A stretch of 63,915 nt of DNA, counting the filler, from Thermoplasmatota archaeon (lineage in GTDB: Archaea > Thermoplasmatota > E2 > JACPAO01 > JAHFTW01): assembly GCA_041623215.1 (NCBI GenBank). It is 4 parts of 4 records of this genome, joined end to end, with 100 filler letters (N's around TTAATTAATTAA, not from the genome) between each part and the next. Parts side by side here need not be neighbours in the genome. Positions count along the whole stretch, not along the records: positions 52,174 to 63,915 come from JBFJXH010000051.1; 3 more parts are not named here. One strand, written 5' to 3'. A program made the translations under genes and the position numbers. Positions 56,908 to 63,915 of this stretch are shown piece by piece. Each line of letters starts with the position of its first letter. The first letter of the stretch is position 1. Below the pieces are notes generated by a model, which had not been told where the DNA came from, made no database searches, and was given only the letters and a program-made list of their open reading frames with translations.

Positions 56908-57723
56908 CTAGTGGCCGCCGGTAAAGGCGCCTTGGAAGTAGGGCACGATGTAGAACACCGTGAACACGAAGACCCACACAATGTCCACAAAGTGCCAATA
57001 CAGCGCTGCCGCGGAAGGCCCCACGTGGCGCTTTTCGTCGTATTGTCCCTTCATGCTGCGAATCAACACGATGACGAGGAAGATGGCGCCGCCAAAGACG
57101 TGCAGACCGTGCGTCCCGGTAATCATGTAGAAGCTGCTCATGAATTGGCTGCTGCCGAGCGTGGCACCTTCGTGGATGAGGGTGAGGTACTCGTCTACCT
57201 GACCGTACAGGAAAATGCCGCCAAGGACAATTGTCGCGGCCCACCACTGGTGGAAGCCCTTCTTGTCACCGGCGTGCAGGCGCTTTTCCGCTTGGTGAAC
57301 GGTAGCGCTTGAGGCAAACAGGAACAGGCTGAAAATACCGGTCTTGACGACGGGCAGGTGGACGGGGGCATCCGGCCAATGGTCCGCCATGCGCATGAAG
57401 GCGAAGTAGGCCGAAAACAGGCCGCCGAAGATGAACACCTCAGACGAAATGAACAACTTGAGGCCACTCATCGCAATGCCGGGGCCGGTGCCAATGTCCT
57501 CCTTCCACCATTGAAAGTCCTCCTTGACCCAACTAATGATGACAGCCACCAGCAAGGCTAGGCCGGGAATGACCAAGATGGGGAATACCACGCCCAGGCC
57601 CACGACGGCGATGGCCATGGCAAGCCAGAAGGGGTTCCAGCTACCGTGTGGCAGGTGCAAGTGGTGCTCGTCGTCATGCGATGGGTGGCCGGCGTGGCCA
57701 GCGGCGGTTTCAGGCGGGCTCAT
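56908..57723 (-). CDS. coxC: Heme-copper oxidase subunit III
   Basis: LFISSEVFIF, FYMITGTHGLHV, LYWHFVDIVW. Confidence 0.93.
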   Translation of the reverse strand: MSPPETAAGHAGHPSHDDEHHLHLPHGSWNPFWLAMAIAVVGLGVVFPILVIPGLALLVAVIISWVKEDFQWWKEDIGTGPGIAMSGLKLFISSEVFIFGGLFSAYFAFMRMADHWPDAPVHLPVVKTGIFSLFLFASSATVHQAEKRLHAGDKKGFHQWWAATIVLGGIFLYGQVDEYLTLIHEGATLGSSQFMSSFYMITGTHGLHVFGGAIFLVIVLIRSMKGQYDEKRHVGPSAAALYWHFVDIVWVFVFTVFYIVPYFQGAFTGGH

Positions 57724-59351
57724 TGGTCGGCCTCCTCGCGGGCAGCTTGTTCTTGCAACGTCATGGGATCGTGGTCCACAATCAGGCCTTCACCGTGCAC
57801 GACGCGGCCTTCCTCCCACAGTTTCCATTCAACCCGTCGGTCGCCACCCCAGGGGTCTTCGGTGACCTTGTCACCGTTCATGTGCGTCCACATGACGTTG
57901 ATGAGGAAGACCAAGATGCTGGCCGCAATCATGAAGGCGCCCACGGTGGACAATTGGTTAAGGAACGTTAGCTCCGGCAGGTAGTCGTAGTACCGGCGCG
58001 GCATGCCTTGCAGCCCAAGGATGAACTGCGGGAAGAACGTCAAGTTGAACCCGACGAACATGGTCCAGAAATGCAGCGTGGCCATCCCTTCGTGGTACAT
58101 GCGGCGCTGGAAGAAGAACGGGTACCAGTAGTACATGGCTGCGAAGATGCCGAACACGGCCCCGCCCACCATGGTGTAGTGGAAGTGGCCGACGACGAAG
58201 TAGGAGTCGTGCAGCGCATAGTCAACCGGAATCGAGCCCAGCATGACCCCGGTCACGCCGCCAATCACGAACAGCCAGATGAAGCCCAGGCACATCTTCA
58301 TGGGGGCATCAAAGTGAATCTTGCCACCCCACATGGTTGCCAGCCAGTTGAACACCTTGATGCCGGTTGGAACACCGACGAGCATGGTGTTGAACATGAA
58401 CACGGCGCGGATGCGGGGGTCAATACCGGTCGTGAACATGTGGTGCGCCCACACCAAGAAACCCACGATGGCGATGCCGAACATGGCGTACGCCATGGAC
58501 TTGTAGCCAAACACCGGGCGGCGGCTAAACTTGGGGATAATCTCGTTGAGAATACCCATTGCAGGCAGAATGAGGACGTACACTTCGGGGTGGCCGAAGA
58601 ACCAGAACAAGTGCTGGTAGAGAATGGGGTCCGAGCCAGCGCCGGTGAAGAAATGGGTGCCAAAGTTGCGGTCGAATAGCACCATGGCAAAGGCGACCGT
58701 GACGACGGGGAGGCTGTACAGCAGCAGGACGCTCGTGGCCAGTTGCGCCCAAACGAAGAGCGGCATGTCGTGGAGCGTGATGTCCTTGGCCCGCATCTTG
58801 AAGATGGTGACCATGAAGTTGACGGAACCGAAGGTGGAGGCAAGCCCCAGCAAGATGAGGCTCAGAACCCAGAAGTCCAACCCGTAATTGGTGCCGAAGT
58901 CGGCCGTTGAGTGGGGCGGATAGCCAACCCACGTGACGTTGACTGCCGTAATGCCCTTGATGAGCAACGGCACCCAGAGGAGAATGAGTGCGGGGGGAAT
59001 GAGCCAGATGGACAGCGCATTAATGCGGGGGAACGCCATGTCCGGCGCTTTGACCATGATGGGAACGAAGTAGTTCCCGAAGCCGGCAAAAGCAGGCATA
59101 ATCCACAGGAACACCATGGTGGTTCCGTGCAGGCTGAAGAATTCACTGAACGCTTCGCCGTCCACGACCGTCGCCCCGGGGAGCCACAATTCAGCGCGCA
59201 AGACCAGGGCGGCGACGCCACCCAAGATGAAGCTGATGAAACCCACCCAGAGGTAGATGAGGCCGATTTCCTTGTGGTCAGTCGTGGTAAGCCAGCGCGT
59301 GAGACCGCGGCGCTTGTGGCCACCTTCGGAAAGGACATAGTCCGATGCCAT
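57720..59351 (-). CDS. coxA: Heme-copper oxidase subunit I, A1 type
   Basis: TTDHKEIG, HGTTM, DMAFPRIN, WFFGHPEVY, WAHHM, HFHY, GMPRRY. Confidence 0.97.
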   Translation of the reverse strand: MASDYVLSEGGHKRRGLTRWLTTTDHKEIGLIYLWVGFISFILGGVAALVLRAELWLPGATVVDGEAFSEFFSLHGTTMVFLWIMPAFAGFGNYFVPIMVKAPDMAFPRINALSIWLIPPALILLWVPLLIKGITAVNVTWVGYPPHSTADFGTNYGLDFWVLSLILLGLASTFGSVNFMVTIFKMRAKDITLHDMPLFVWAQLATSVLLLYSLPVVTVAFAMVLFDRNFGTHFFTGAGSDPILYQHLFWFFGHPEVYVLILPAMGILNEIIPKFSRRPVFGYKSMAYAMFGIAIVGFLVWAHHMFTTGIDPRIRAVFMFNTMLVGVPTGIKVFNWLATMWGGKIHFDAPMKMCLGFIWLFVIGGVTGVMLGSIPVDYALHDSYFVVGHFHYTMVGGAVFGIFAAMYYWYPFFFQRRMYHEGMATLHFWTMFVGFNLTFFPQFILGLQGMPRRYYDYLPELTFLNQLSTVGAFMIAASILVFLINVMWTHMNGDKVTEDPWGGDRRVEWKLWEEGRVVHGEGLIVDHDPMTLQEQAAREEADQ

Positions 59352-59487
59352 GGACGGGCCGCGCGACGGAGGCGGCCGTAAAAAGGGTGGGGTTAGCAGG
59401 CTGGGGCTGGCTCGGGCTCACAAGCTCCGCCTGGACCACGCCGTTTCCTCGCAGCCCTTTTATCCATCGGCCCGTCGTCGCCGCCCC

Positions 59488-60846
59488 GTGTCCTTGCGTC
59501 GGACGTCCTTCGTCGCCGCCCTCTTGACTCTCTTGGCTACTGCTGCGCCTGCTTCGGCGCGGTGGGGAATGCCTGAGCCCTTGACGCCGACGGGCGTCGT
59601 GATGGAGAACATCTACTCGCAGATCTTCCTGGCAGCGCTGCTGGTGTCGCTGTTCGTATTCGCGCTACTTGCCTATGTGGTGTGGCGCTTCCGTGCCAGC
59701 AGCGGCCACGGCCGCGCCACGCACGAACATGAGCGGGACAACCTGAAGGCGGAGATGACGTGGACCATCATTCCATTGTTCATCATGATCTGGGTTGGCG
59801 TCATCAGTTACCAAGGCCTTGTGGCCCTCGACAGCAGCTTCGACGACGATGACATCGAGTACAACATCGGCATCGTGGCTAGCAAGTGGAACTGGCGCGC
59901 CGTTTACGAGGGCGGGTTCGACAACGGCGGGTTCGAGCTGACGAGCAGCCCCAGCTTCAGCAATGGAGCAGAGCGCAACTTCGTCAACGACGAGAACGTC
60001 TTCTATCTGCCATCGGACACGATTATTCGATTCACGGTCACGAGTGCAGACATCCTCCACGCGTGGGCTCTGTTTGACAGCAACGGGGCCGCTGTTGGCA
60101 TGATTGACGCCGCTCCCAGCGGGCCGACTCAGTTCAACGAATTGGAAGTCATCCTGCCCGATGGCGAATATTGGGTCAAGTGCAAGGAGCATTGCTTCAA
60201 CCCCGGCCACGCCTACATGCGGGCCAGGGTCATTGCCGTGCCCCCTGCCGAGTTCAACGGATGGGCTGATGAGACCCGCCTGACGGCCGGTGCCAGTGTG
60301 GTTGCCGAACTTGGCATGCTCCTAAGCGACGGCGGCGTCAGCACGGAAGGCAACTACACGGTCGTCAAATCGAGTCGCGTCGTCATGCAGGTTGGCAATG
60401 CCGAAGCAACCGACGCACGACTCACGAGCGCTGAGCTCGGCCTCGACATCACGATTCCCCCAAACACGTTGTATCGCTTCGCGTTTGATGCGCCAACACC
60501 GGGCACATTTACCCTTATGACGCCCGCCGGCCCGGTGGATTTGACCGTGCTGGACGCCGAGTCGGTGACCGTCGAATTGTTCGAATGGGGCATCGAGCCA
60601 GCCAACTTGCAGTTGCAAGCTGGCAAGACGTACCTCGTCAATGTTGTCAACAGCGGCGACTCCGACCACAACCTGTTCATCGGTGACCTCGGGGCGCGAA
60701 GTGCAGCCTTCAAGTCGGTGGACATCGCCGGCGGAGCCAGCACGTCCTTCCTCGTGCAGGGCGCCTCGGCAGGCCTGTACGACACATGGTGCAACGTGCC
60801 CAGCCACGATGATCTTGGCATGGTTGGCACGGCCACGGTTGCCTAG
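59488..60846 (+). CDS. coxB: Heme-copper oxidase subunit II with two extra C-terminal cupredoxin domains
   Basis: Signal peptide, 2 TM helices, EMTWTIIP, KWNW, DILHAW, CKEHCFNPGHAYM (CuA); C-terminal HNL...WCNVPSHDDLGM; start GTG 59488 preferred. Confidence 0.88.
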   Translation: MSLRRTSFVAALLTLLATAAPASARWGMPEPLTPTGVVMENIYSQIFLAALLVSLFVFALLAYVVWRFRASSGHGRATHEHERDNLKAEMTWTIIPLFIMIWVGVISYQGLVALDSSFDDDDIEYNIGIVASKWNWRAVYEGGFDNGGFELTSSPSFSNGAERNFVNDENVFYLPSDTIIRFTVTSADILHAWALFDSNGAAVGMIDAAPSGPTQFNELEVILPDGEYWVKCKEHCFNPGHAYMRARVIAVPPAEFNGWADETRLTAGASVVAELGMLLSDGGVSTEGNYTVVKSSRVVMQVGNAEATDARLTSAELGLDITIPPNTLYRFAFDAPTPGTFTLMTPAGPVDLTVLDAESVTVELFEWGIEPANLQLQAGKTYLVNVVNSGDSDHNLFIGDLGARSAAFKSVDIAGGASTSFLVQGASAGLYDTWCNVPSHDDLGMVGTATVA

Positions 60847-60849
60847 ACC

Positions 60850-61730
60850 TGCCCGGCGGCTTCTCCAGCCGACGCGATGGAAAGCCGAGCACGTTCAGGA
60901 TGGCCGCGCCATCTCGGGTGGCCCCGGGCCGGGCGAACCGGAACCCAAGAGCGCTCCCGACACAACGTCGGGCCCAACGAAGAGCCGCGCAAACGGCGAC
61001 GAGCCGGCCGAAGCCGGTAACGGCCCCATCCGTGAGCCAAGGTTTCCGGGCCTTGGACCCCATGCCCCCCAGTCTCCTGGCGGGCGCGTCTTGCACAGGC
61101 ATTCCCGGTGCCTCGTGGGCTAGCAAGCCCCGCGCGATAAATCGCGTGCATGACGTGGCGGATGGCTACTGTCCCCCTCCGGTTGGATACCCGGGCCGGG
61201 CACCGGACGAAGTCCGGTCCCGGTCGGCTGGAAGCCAAGGGGCCCCGTGCGATTCGCCGAAGCGAATCGTTGGCGGATGCACCCGTCGCGTCGTCGTTGC
61301 CGACGGCGCTCCGTCCGCTGGTTTCCCAGTCGGGCGGGTCCGGCTGTCCATCACGGCGCGTTGTCTCCGAAAAGACCGGCGTACGACCAAAGGCCGCGGC
61401 CACGCTGCCCAAAACAAGTTTGGGCGAACCCGTGCGTCCGGGCCCAACAGGCTGCTGGACCACATCCCGGCCGAAGCCGGTGCACGGCAATCGGCACCGG
61501 CAAGCCGGGCCAATCGCATGGATCATCCGGGGCGGATGCGACAGCGTTGCTGGCAGTTACCCACCAGCACTCGCGGCGGCTTGCCCTCCAATCCCGTGGC
61601 CGGGTCGGTGGGCGCTGACGACTCCCCGAAGGGTCTCGCCAGATGCAGTTCCCGTCCGTTACCAGGCGGGTCTCGGGACCGCACAAGTCGGCCCCCGCCG
61701 CGACGACCGTTGTCGCCGCTTGCGCGGAGT
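60850..61730 (-). ncRNA. Candidate large (~880 nt) highly structured non-coding RNA of unrecognised family
   Basis: No protein-like frame; 5 UUCG- and 6 GNRA-capped hairpins on the minus strand, G-U pairs, long-range stems, upstream TATA/BRE-like element; ends approximate. Confidence 0.75.
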
Positions 61731-61749
61731 TGGCACTATATGCGGGTCG

Positions 61750-61764
61750 TTGAAAGCGATTTTC
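61750..61764 (-). promoter_or_regulatory. Putative BRE/TATA-like promoter for the candidate ncRNA
   Basis: Minus strand GAAAATCGCTTTCAA about 25 nt before the first hairpin; alternative CATATAG at 61736-61742. Confidence 0.4.
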
Positions 61765-61820
61765 GGGAAACGCAGCTTCGCTTGGGCCCCTTGCTGCTGG
61801 CTTCGGATGCAGCCCCTGCA

Positions 61821-62933
61821 TCACATGGAGTCGGAAGGCGGCTTGCCAGTGCGCGCGCCGCGCCAAATGAACCACGCGGCAAGCCCCAGCACGAGGGCCG
61901 AGGCAGCCACCCAAGGCCGCGGGTCACGCAACCACGTGGACGCGGCTGGCCTCGAGTCATCAGCGGCACCACCAACAGGCTCACCATCTGGCACTCGTCC
62001 CGGCAAGGCCGCCTGGCCGGTGTGGTTCTCGTCCTCCCCGCCGTCGTTGACCACGCGACTCGTGCCGTTGGCCGCACTCCATGGCTGCGGCTCCGCCTCC
62101 AAGTGGGCACCGTGGTGCACGCTCAGGAATACTTCATGGTCCAGGCCAGAGCGATAATCTGTGTCCAGTTGCAAGGATTGCATGGACCCGTCCCCGTACT
62201 GGAACTCGAACGCCGCTAGGGCGTGTTGGCCTTCCGGCGCGTCGGGCGGGATGTACACAAGACATTCTTCATCCACGTAGGAAAGCGCAGGAAGCGGGCA
62301 AGCGGTCGTGGCGTGCCACGCATCGGGGCCCTGAAGGGTGATATTGACTCGCGTCAGCGGCTGAGACGCAGAAGCAACAAGCCGCACCGCGACCTCGTCA
62401 CCCGGCTTTACCTGTCGCGGGTCCGAGCGAACCAGCCAGAGCTCGACGCGCTCGTCACCAGTGCCGGTCTCCGCGCCGGGCCGGTGATGCCTGAGCACAC
62501 TCGCCCCGTCGTCTGGCAGGCTGGTCCCGCGCTCCATCAGGGTCGTGCGGCCATGCGTGTCCTCGAGCCAAAGCCATTGCAAGCGAAAGTCGCGGCCCCT
62601 GGCGGCCGGGGGCAAGTCAAAGGTACATTGGACGCGGCCTTGCCGGTCGGCAGGTTCGTAGTTGCATCCAAACGTCACCCCGCTCCCACCATCAACGGCC
62701 GAAAGTTGGCCGGCCACGTGCCACAGCGCCCCGTCGCCCATCCATGCAATGTCGAGCGTCGCCGGCATGCCAAGGGAAATGGTGCCGGGTGCAAACGCAA
62801 CGGCGGAGGCAACCGGAGGTTGGCCGTCCGATTGCCCGGCCGTGGAAGCAGCCAGTAGGGGACCCGCGAGCAACAGCGCCACCAAGATGCCCCACCGGCA
62901 CCCCGTGTTTCGCCACAACTTGAGCGTCGCCAT
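61821..62933 (-). CDS. Secreted, C-terminally anchored protein with two Ig-like repeats
   Basis: Signal peptide; repeats LPPAARGRDFRLQWLWLEDTHG and IPPDAPEGQHALAAFEFQYGDG; C-terminal TM helix plus basic tail. Confidence 0.65.
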   Translation of the reverse strand: MATLKLWRNTGCRWGILVALLLAGPLLAASTAGQSDGQPPVASAVAFAPGTISLGMPATLDIAWMGDGALWHVAGQLSAVDGGSGVTFGCNYEPADRQGRVQCTFDLPPAARGRDFRLQWLWLEDTHGRTTLMERGTSLPDDGASVLRHHRPGAETGTGDERVELWLVRSDPRQVKPGDEVAVRLVASASQPLTRVNITLQGPDAWHATTACPLPALSYVDEECLVYIPPDAPEGQHALAAFEFQYGDGSMQSLQLDTDYRSGLDHEVFLSVHHGAHLEAEPQPWSAANGTSRVVNDGGEDENHTGQAALPGRVPDGEPVGGAADDSRPAASTWLRDPRPWVAASALVLGLAAWFIWRGARTGKPPSDSM

Positions 62934-62953: not shown

Positions 62954-63915
62954 TCACGAGGCCTTTGCGGTCGGTCCCGCGCCGTGCTCGTCGGGCGGGC
63001 CAATCGGATGGCGCCACACGTGGGTCGCCACCAGACTTCCCACAGTAAGGTCGTAGTAGTACGTGACCCCGCGCCAGGCAACGACAAACGCAGGCGTCAA
63101 GCCTGGAGCAAGCGGCGTCAAGAGGGCGATGGCGGTAAGTTCGGCCACGCCAGACCCGCCAGGGGTGACCGGGATGCTGGCCACCATGGTCAGAACAACA
63201 CCAACGAGAATGACATGCAGAAACGGCACGTCGTAACCAAAGCCCCGCAGCAAGAACCACAGCGCTCAGTAGTCGGTAATCCAGTTAGCCGCGCTCAGCA
63301 CGAAGGCCGCCACAACTCGGGCAGGCGACCCTTTCAGGAGTTCCCCTAAGCCGGACCGAACGTCTTGGACCAAGCGCGTTGTCTTGCCCTGCAAATCCGG
63401 CACATCACGGCGCACCATCCGCGCGCCGACACTTACCACCCCCTGGGCCATGGCACCCATGCGTGCCGGAGCCGCCAATGTCATGACCAGCAAGGCAACG
63501 AAGACCACCAACATGGCCAGGCCGAACGCCGTGTAGCGGGCCACGGAGGTGGCATTGTCGCCGAACATTTGCGGCAGCAGAACCGTTGCCACGACGCCCA
63601 TTGTAAGAAAGAACACAAGGTCCGCAGCACGGTCGGCCAGAAGGAGGCGCCCGGCTGCGGCCGGCGTATGCCGGGACCGCAGAAGCACGCCCATCTTCCA
63701 ACCCTCGCCCCCGATGCGCCCCGGGGTGACGGCTGCGGCGGCTAACCCACTCGTAATGATGCGCCAAGAATCGACCATGGACAAGCGCGTCTCCAGGCCC
63801 CCTGCCAGCAACCAAAGGCGAAGCGCCCACCAGGCGTGAGCGCCCATGTGGCACGCAATGGCCGCGCCAATGACCTTGGCATCGAGAGCCGCGAAGGAAC
63901 TGCGCAAGTCTTGGC
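62954..63915 (-). pseudogene. LPG-synthase TM domain/flippase-like (UPF0104) gene interrupted by in-frame TGA (5'-truncated)
   Basis: VTPGRIGGE, DRAADL, then ...WITDY-TGA(63266-63268)-ALWFLLRGFG...IPVTPGGSGVAE continuing in the same frame. Confidence 0.65.

Follow-up and report, generated by a model that had tools for sequence, protein, structure and literature searches.

Does the interval of roughly 0.9 kb downstream of cox2 on contig C51 of this 1.94-Mb archaeal assembly (63% GC) encode a large structured RNA, as the original prediction held, and if so, what could such an RNA do for its host? The window, i.e. the entire 63,915-nt stretch of DNA that was analysed, consists of four contigs joined with N spacers, and close homologs of the neighbouring cox1 carry a Thermoplasmatota label where their source is named. 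Based on the analyses presented here, we are highly confident that the element is a genuine RNA gene, presumably expressed, and it belongs to a real family of large, ornate RNAs in archaea that has apparently escaped description so far. The claim of an independently transcribed, large structured RNA outside known families is supported by a promoter-like region in 19 homologs, a covarying core, and the lack of both a coding signal and an Rfam match, transcription being something that we infer rather than observe.

The earlier statement that the interval contains no protein-like frame is only partly correct, as the region is traversed by three open frames (439, 335 and 227 aa). None of the three has a Pfam match, however, and a coding signal is indeed missing: the GC content is level across all three codon positions at the locus (0.68-0.71) compared to 0.59/0.46/0.78 in cox2, and codon-position bias is absent from the locus and from every frame of 17 homologous sequences. 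No credible Rfam match was obtained for the window, in agreement with the prediction, and a search of the 17 homolog loci returned just one tRNA and one sub-threshold match outside the RNA. Likewise as predicted, the RNA matches neither the RNase P nor the SRP model, the true genes being located on contigs C98 (full RNase P RNA) and C35 (archaeal SRP RNA). Neither the rest of the source genome nor the 16S loci of six relatives display meaningful similarity or complementarity to the RNA. Several further classes were considered and rejected, i.e. box C/D or H/ACA guide RNAs (no Rfam match, box C in 0 of 17 sequences, and K-turn-like motifs whose positions are not shared among these and whose counts mostly lie near those of shuffles), Y RNAs (no Ro60/TROVE partner found in the source genome, the assembly being 88% complete) and group I or II introns (no Rfam match, complete genes on both sides, and a promoter-like region belonging to the element itself). 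The sequencing runs listed as holding the stretch comprise four DNA runs from one marine study and no RNA run. In the literature we found no description of the family; Thermoplasmatota are unmentioned in the available main text of two preprints from 2026 that mine whole genomes for non-coding elements, the supplements of which, together with COMPASS, could list the family unnamed.

All 19 of the minus-strand hairpins and strand segments originally proposed are present where they had been placed. Counting UUCG or GNRA hairpins with a stem of at least 4 pairs, the minus strand of the locus holds nine and the plus strand one, and the expected enrichment is evident from 200 dinucleotide shuffles (mean 0.73, maximum 4). 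Across 35,716 assembly windows of 743 nt the mean is 0.57 hairpins, and the seven windows with at least six all overlap the RNA locus, which represents the most tetraloop-dense stretch of an assembly from which the 16S rRNA is absent. Among the homologs, the tetraloop count lies above all 200 shuffles in 16 of 17 sequences, and the folds of the 17 hold 113 GNRA and 43 UNCG loops. Folding is also stronger than in shuffled sequence (z = -6.4 for the minus and -3.5 for the plus strand), and the 12 of 16 complete homologs that were folded yield z = -4.3 to -13.7 (10 shuffles each). The antisense strands of these homologs reach z = -1.2 to -9.0 (10 shuffles each), and hence the strand is not fixed by folding energy. 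The rRNA leaders of the host family (L183-L190), which are about 500 nt long, are rich in tetraloop hairpins as well, and since these resemble those of the RNA, the loops may not be docking sites but simply a trait of transcripts that are abundant and fold well.

The element is large, as claimed, but its extent has to be revised from about 0.9 kb (approximately 880 nt, 60850 to 61730) to a predicted 743 nt, running from 61727 to 60985 on the minus strand (Table 1). The proposed lower end at 60850 is not supported, as positions 60847-60984 give z of only -0.5 and -0.2; these 138 nt are not specially structured, and in conjunction with the pairing between leader and 3' end this places the predicted end near 60985. 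On the upstream side, BRE-like, TATA-like and A/T-rich elements align together with the leader from 61727 in 19 sequences. The BRE-like purine/A run is preceded by a conserved TTCC-like segment, and the A/T-rich patch probably constitutes the initially melted region. The spacing agrees with the archaeal consensus as given in PMC6640164 (BRE -36 to -32, TATA -30 to -23). When a homolog-trained promoter matrix is run over the genome, the site of the RNA scores best and no regulon emerges; the tRNA, SRP and rRNA promoters are unlike the promoter-like region of the RNA. In the source genome, a GC-rich element following the TATA-like box is common to many of the regions upstream of tRNA and SRP genes.

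Table 1 Predicted features of the RNA and its immediate context, in window positions.
Feature	Position	Strand	Remark
cox2, cytochrome c oxidase subunit II with C-terminal cupredoxin domain	59350..60846	+	Convergent neighbour; context, outside the RNA
Pyrimidine-rich tract after P1, predicted terminator	60976..60984	-	U-/pyrimidine-rich 20-mers after P1 in most homologs
Predicted RNA, 743 nt	60985..61727	-	Start predicted within ~3 nt of 61727
P1 3' strand	60985..61000	-	Pair probability 1.0
Hairpin PX, UUCG loop, between P2 and P1 3' strands	61004..61017	-	Same-place hairpin recurs in homologs
Domain C, closed by P4/P5 (61159-61165 with 61026-61032)	61026..61165	-	Variable hairpins
Domain B, closed by P6a (61540-61545 with 61168-61173)	61168..61545	-	Variable subdomain and conserved core
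Four-way-junction core: closing helix, H1, variable hairpin, H3	61174..61242	-	Covariation in 15 sequences
Domain A, closed by P3 (61696-61703 with 61571-61578)	61571..61703	-	Variable hairpins within
P2 5' strand, pairs with 61019-61025, closes central junction	61705..61711	-	Recurs in several homolog folds
P1 5' strand, conserved leader	61712..61727	-	171 of 180 P1 pairs
A/T-rich patch, ~-14 to -10	61737..61741	-	Invariant T column in alignment A3
TATA-like box, ~-29 to -22	61749..61756	-	Columns conserved in 19 homologs
Extended BRE-like element	61760..61770	-	Purine/A run ~37-33 nt upstream of first conserved base
Upstream gene, weak NPCBM_assoc match slightly below cut-off	61821..62933	-	Varies among homologs; context only

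The two ends of the RNA are joined by P1, a 16-bp helix for which the count of paired positions derives from 15 complete main-type homologs. Alternatively, the first 12 nt of the leader form a 4-bp hairpin with a GCAA tetraloop, all four pairs of which are kept in each of these 15 homologs. This hairpin (61716-61727) had been recognized from the outset, but not the closing helix to which it is an alternative. In G410, two bases are changed in the leader and two in the P1 3' strand such that both folds are kept, and hence hairpin and helix both appear to be selected. Transcription termination in archaea is uridine-rich, and at least 7 T occur within the 20 nt following P1 in 8 of 15 homologs, compared to a genome background of 6.9%.

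Independent folds repeatedly yield an order of P1, the 3'-side hairpin PX, P2 and a junction with domains A (P3), B (P6a) and C (P4/P5), although some helices are missing from individual homolog folds. The promoter, the 5' leader, the helix order and the core are kept, whereas the peripheral hairpins vary freely. The anticipated covariation is found in the four-way-junction core, where 11 of 16 pairs show two-sided change, a number reached by 0 of 500 shuffles (15 sequences). In the core alignment 92.8% of the cells are paired, as opposed to 31-60% in slid controls, and the junction, including a 5-bp H1 and a 4-bp H3 with a loop of 7-8 nt (61183-61190), is recovered by RNAalifold; only four columns are invariant and almost no unpaired nucleotide is. 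For the long-range helices the case is limited to pairing, with 90.5% of the cells paired against 33-44% when slid in eight related sequences, as their two-sided-change count is reached by 166 of 500 shuffles. Individually, P2 and P6a are 78.6% and 100% paired in the eight-sequence alignment, and the P3 partner is better than shuffles (at most 25 of 500) in just 4 of 14 homologs tested. Four strain variants detected within the RNA in the DNA runs, two at unpaired positions and two that convert pairs to G-U, represent a small supporting sign for the fold.

The search for homologs was successful: of 38 genomes from the order, 18 contain RNAs of 420-1012 nt, each in single copy as in the source genome. 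The source organism's own family contributes 13 of these (among 32 genomes), f2 three (among 4) and f3 two (among 2). A promoter-plus-leader model accounts for 16 of the 38 (E 1.1e-10 or better, one copy each), and copies in G404 (5'-truncated at a contig end) and G066 (divergent) complete the set. The G066 copy was missed by model R2, and some absences may be missed divergent or unassembled copies. Three metagenome contigs also carry the RNA, one complete and two partial, and in runs X1 and X3 loose contig ends at window positions 61696-61755 indicate that these marine samples contain further homologs with the leader. No copy was detected in 113 other genomes of the class or, with either model, in 150 genomes sampled across the phylum, and among the genomes searched the family is confined to one order. 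BLAST with the whole RNA against 401 genomes gives matches confined to the leader of about 30 nt. What the divergent subtype of three f2 genomes has in common with the main type is limited to the promoter-like region, the initial 7 nt and the architecture of the closing helix; it does not match the core model, so that homology is likely, yet unproven.

Other candidates did not withstand inspection. Of the matches to a species-wide pattern scan, 13 of 17 are bacterial and lack the promoter-like region, one of four metagenome matches is a coding gene, nine leader-pattern matches outside the order have neither the promoter-like region nor the tetraloop density, and a weak core match in G048 falls within a 793-aa frame. 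The tRNA-synthetase loci of four low-GC genomes of the class lack the RNA, and a cox2 search in them found nothing. In G411, a hairpin-rich gap between a tRNA synthetase gene and cox2 (L152:1165-1495), which is the site of the RNA in relatives, has z = -1.0 and no leader, and is possibly an RNA remnant.

The most similar RNAs reside in sister hosts, e.g. G343/G403 and G268/G202, and the region downstream of cox2 is devoid of the RNA in several relatives, including the sole genome of the same genus. With sister RNAs in sister hosts and many syntenic sites unoccupied, the pattern is explained most simply by vertical inheritance and recurrent loss. The presence label changes seven times on a cox2 tree of 28 rows, and 31-36 of 500 shuffles are as low.

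Within its own family the RNA is convergent to cox2 or to a glucose/sorbosone dehydrogenase (GSDH) gene, at times following a class II tRNA synthetase gene, and its neighbours in f2 and f3 differ from these; overall, the genes adjoining homologs include cox2, GSDH, an Asp/Asn/Lys-type tRNA synthetase, Sir2 and others. In the window (57720-60846), cox1-cox3 are divergent from cox2, which carries an extra cupredoxin domain at its C-terminus. A cupredoxin domain is also present inside frames of 1050-1334 aa in G406, G328, G048, G155 and G402 (L144, L156, L158, L159 and L164), possibly fused oxidases, and the RNA was not found in these five genomes. In G143 (L147), a unit of about 95 nt is repeated three times in tandem after a gene end near cox2. 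Further upstream in the window, a lysylphosphatidylglycerol-synthase-like gene (PF03706; 62954-63913, minus strand) is interrupted by a TGA at 63266-63268 that leaves two pieces in the same frame, owing to either a nonsense change or an assembly error.

Taken together with what is known of OLE RNA, we tentatively propose, with a confidence somewhat short of even, that the 743-nt RNA, predicted to stand alone, serves in trans as a scaffold that binds proteins and has an accessory role. TBP and TFB would start transcription near 61727, and the leader would fold first into the GCAA hairpin. Displacement of this hairpin by the 3' end would then form P1, thereby sealing both ends just ahead of the pyrimidine tract, where termination would occur. 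The central junction would display the three domains, with host proteins docking on small conserved surfaces, namely P1-P2-P3 and the core with the H3 loop, while the tetraloop-capped peripheral hairpins would serve as expansion segments that keep folding local. The range in length around a small constant core favours such a scaffold with dispensable expansions over a closed symmetric cage. Repeated loss, with 20 of 38 genomes lacking a detected copy, suggests a condition-specific benefit, in stress or dormancy, rather than a housekeeping role, the stress component being based on analogy and on this dispensability. Several findings count against a scaffold: the neighbouring genes vary among homologs and point to no partner protein, Ro60/TROVE was not found in the source genome, the 17 sequences lack box C and shared K-turn-like sites, and the long-range helices do not covary beyond shuffles in the eight related sequences.

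The analogy is to the OLE RNA of Bacillota, which, according to PMC12054373, is a large, highly structured RNA in an RNP of about 600 nt whose function is open and whose loss impairs growth under stress only; an RNP state of the archaeal RNA would follow by likeness. In contrast to OLE, the archaeal RNA has no match to the OLE Rfam model, its neighbours include neither a conserved partner gene nor an oapA-type membrane protein gene, and the sequence conservation of the family, with its more than two-fold variation in length, is far lower.

The main rival, which we consider unlikely, is an RNA-only homo-multimer or nanocage resembling ROOL and GOLLD, held together through tetraloop docking and kissing loops. 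It would account for the abundance of GNRA and UNCG loops and the lack of a linked protein gene, and the RNA is similar to ROOL and GOLLD in size and in its multistem junctions with few invariant bases, as these are described in PMC5737381. The cages of ROOL and GOLLD rely on kissing loops and A-minor contacts, and ROOL is abundant yet non-essential in one strain, as reported in 10.1101/2024.12.08.627333. A self-complementary hexamer is present in a hairpin near the 5' end of all three f2 RNAs (L103, L104 and L222; 420-450 nt). However, in the 14 main-type RNAs the H3 loop has no conserved kissing partner, no self-complementary loop occurs at a shared place in the main type, and no conserved pseudoknot was found there. 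The variation in length also argues against a multimer, and the RNA matches neither Rfam model, has no match in viral contigs or phage and plasmid collections, and does not reside in a tRNA island, the single tRNA of the window being 7.5 kb away and one tRNA occurring in 1 of 17 homolog loci. More broadly, a giant ornate chromosomal RNA that self-assembles into an RNA-built particle, or that switches between an open form with the 5' tetraloop hairpin and a closed form with P1, strikes us as doubtful, although with an appreciable chance of being correct; on this view, the family could also belong to a broader group of large RNAs within the archaeal class.

Archaeal RNase P and SRP RNAs stand alone and are closed by a helix between their 5' and 3' ends, as is the ornate RNA. 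A ribozyme or a degenerate RNase P RNA paralog would agree with the multi-junction fold and the conserved closing helices, and the succession P1-P2-P3, in which a hairpin precedes the closing strand on the 3' side, presumably resembles the RNase P RNA topology. This explanation is nevertheless improbable, as no Rfam match appears even with lax thresholds, a full RNase P RNA is already encoded on C98, invariant unpaired nucleotides are almost lacking and there is no room before P1 for a P4-type pseudoknot strand; unlike RNase P and SRP RNAs, moreover, the RNA is undetected in more than half of the order's genomes.

We give slightly less credence still to a cis-antisense role in which the RNA regulates the convergent gene, cox2 or GSDH. 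The downstream gene is convergent wherever callable, three unrelated contexts included; yet the RNA does not reach as far as the stop codon of the neighbour (falling short by 138 nt here and about 9 nt in G412), the neighbour changes from family to family, and a covarying core is not needed for such a role. A non-autonomous mobile element with the P1 strands as terminal inverted repeats is largely refuted and retains very little probability. The inverted terminal sequences, the patchy presence and a placement relative to GSDH that differs between genomes would fit, but the RNA has one copy per genome in a neighbourhood kept across genera (a MITE was rejected as the element is single-copy and syntenic), the most similar RNAs are those of sister hosts, changes in P1 to G-U or mismatch fit RNA pairing, and no transposase was detected in the 29 neighbouring frames scanned. 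Least probable of all is binding of the RNA to Cas6/Cascade through a leader that imitates the CRISPR repeat of type I-E systems, for while the leader hairpin equals the repeat stem-loop of a CRISPR-like array in G029 of another family (L211 and L212; about 35 repeats, 61-nt spacing), this hairpin is short and GC-rich, no such array was seen in the source assembly, and Cas6e was found in 0 of 38 genomes of the order, in a search of limited sensitivity whose control was positive in 1 of 14 genomes.

In conclusion, OLE, ROOL and GOLLD are bacterial or phage-borne RNAs with open functions, to which the family adds an archaeal, chromosomal and vertically inherited example. The natural length variants from 420 to 1012 nt delimit the minimal core, a 430-nt member is a ready target for cryo-EM, and carriers and non-carriers among close relatives offer a natural comparison for identifying partner and role. 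If the RNA-built particle or the open/closed switch were true, the family would provide archaea with an RNA machine in addition to rRNA, RNase P and SRP.
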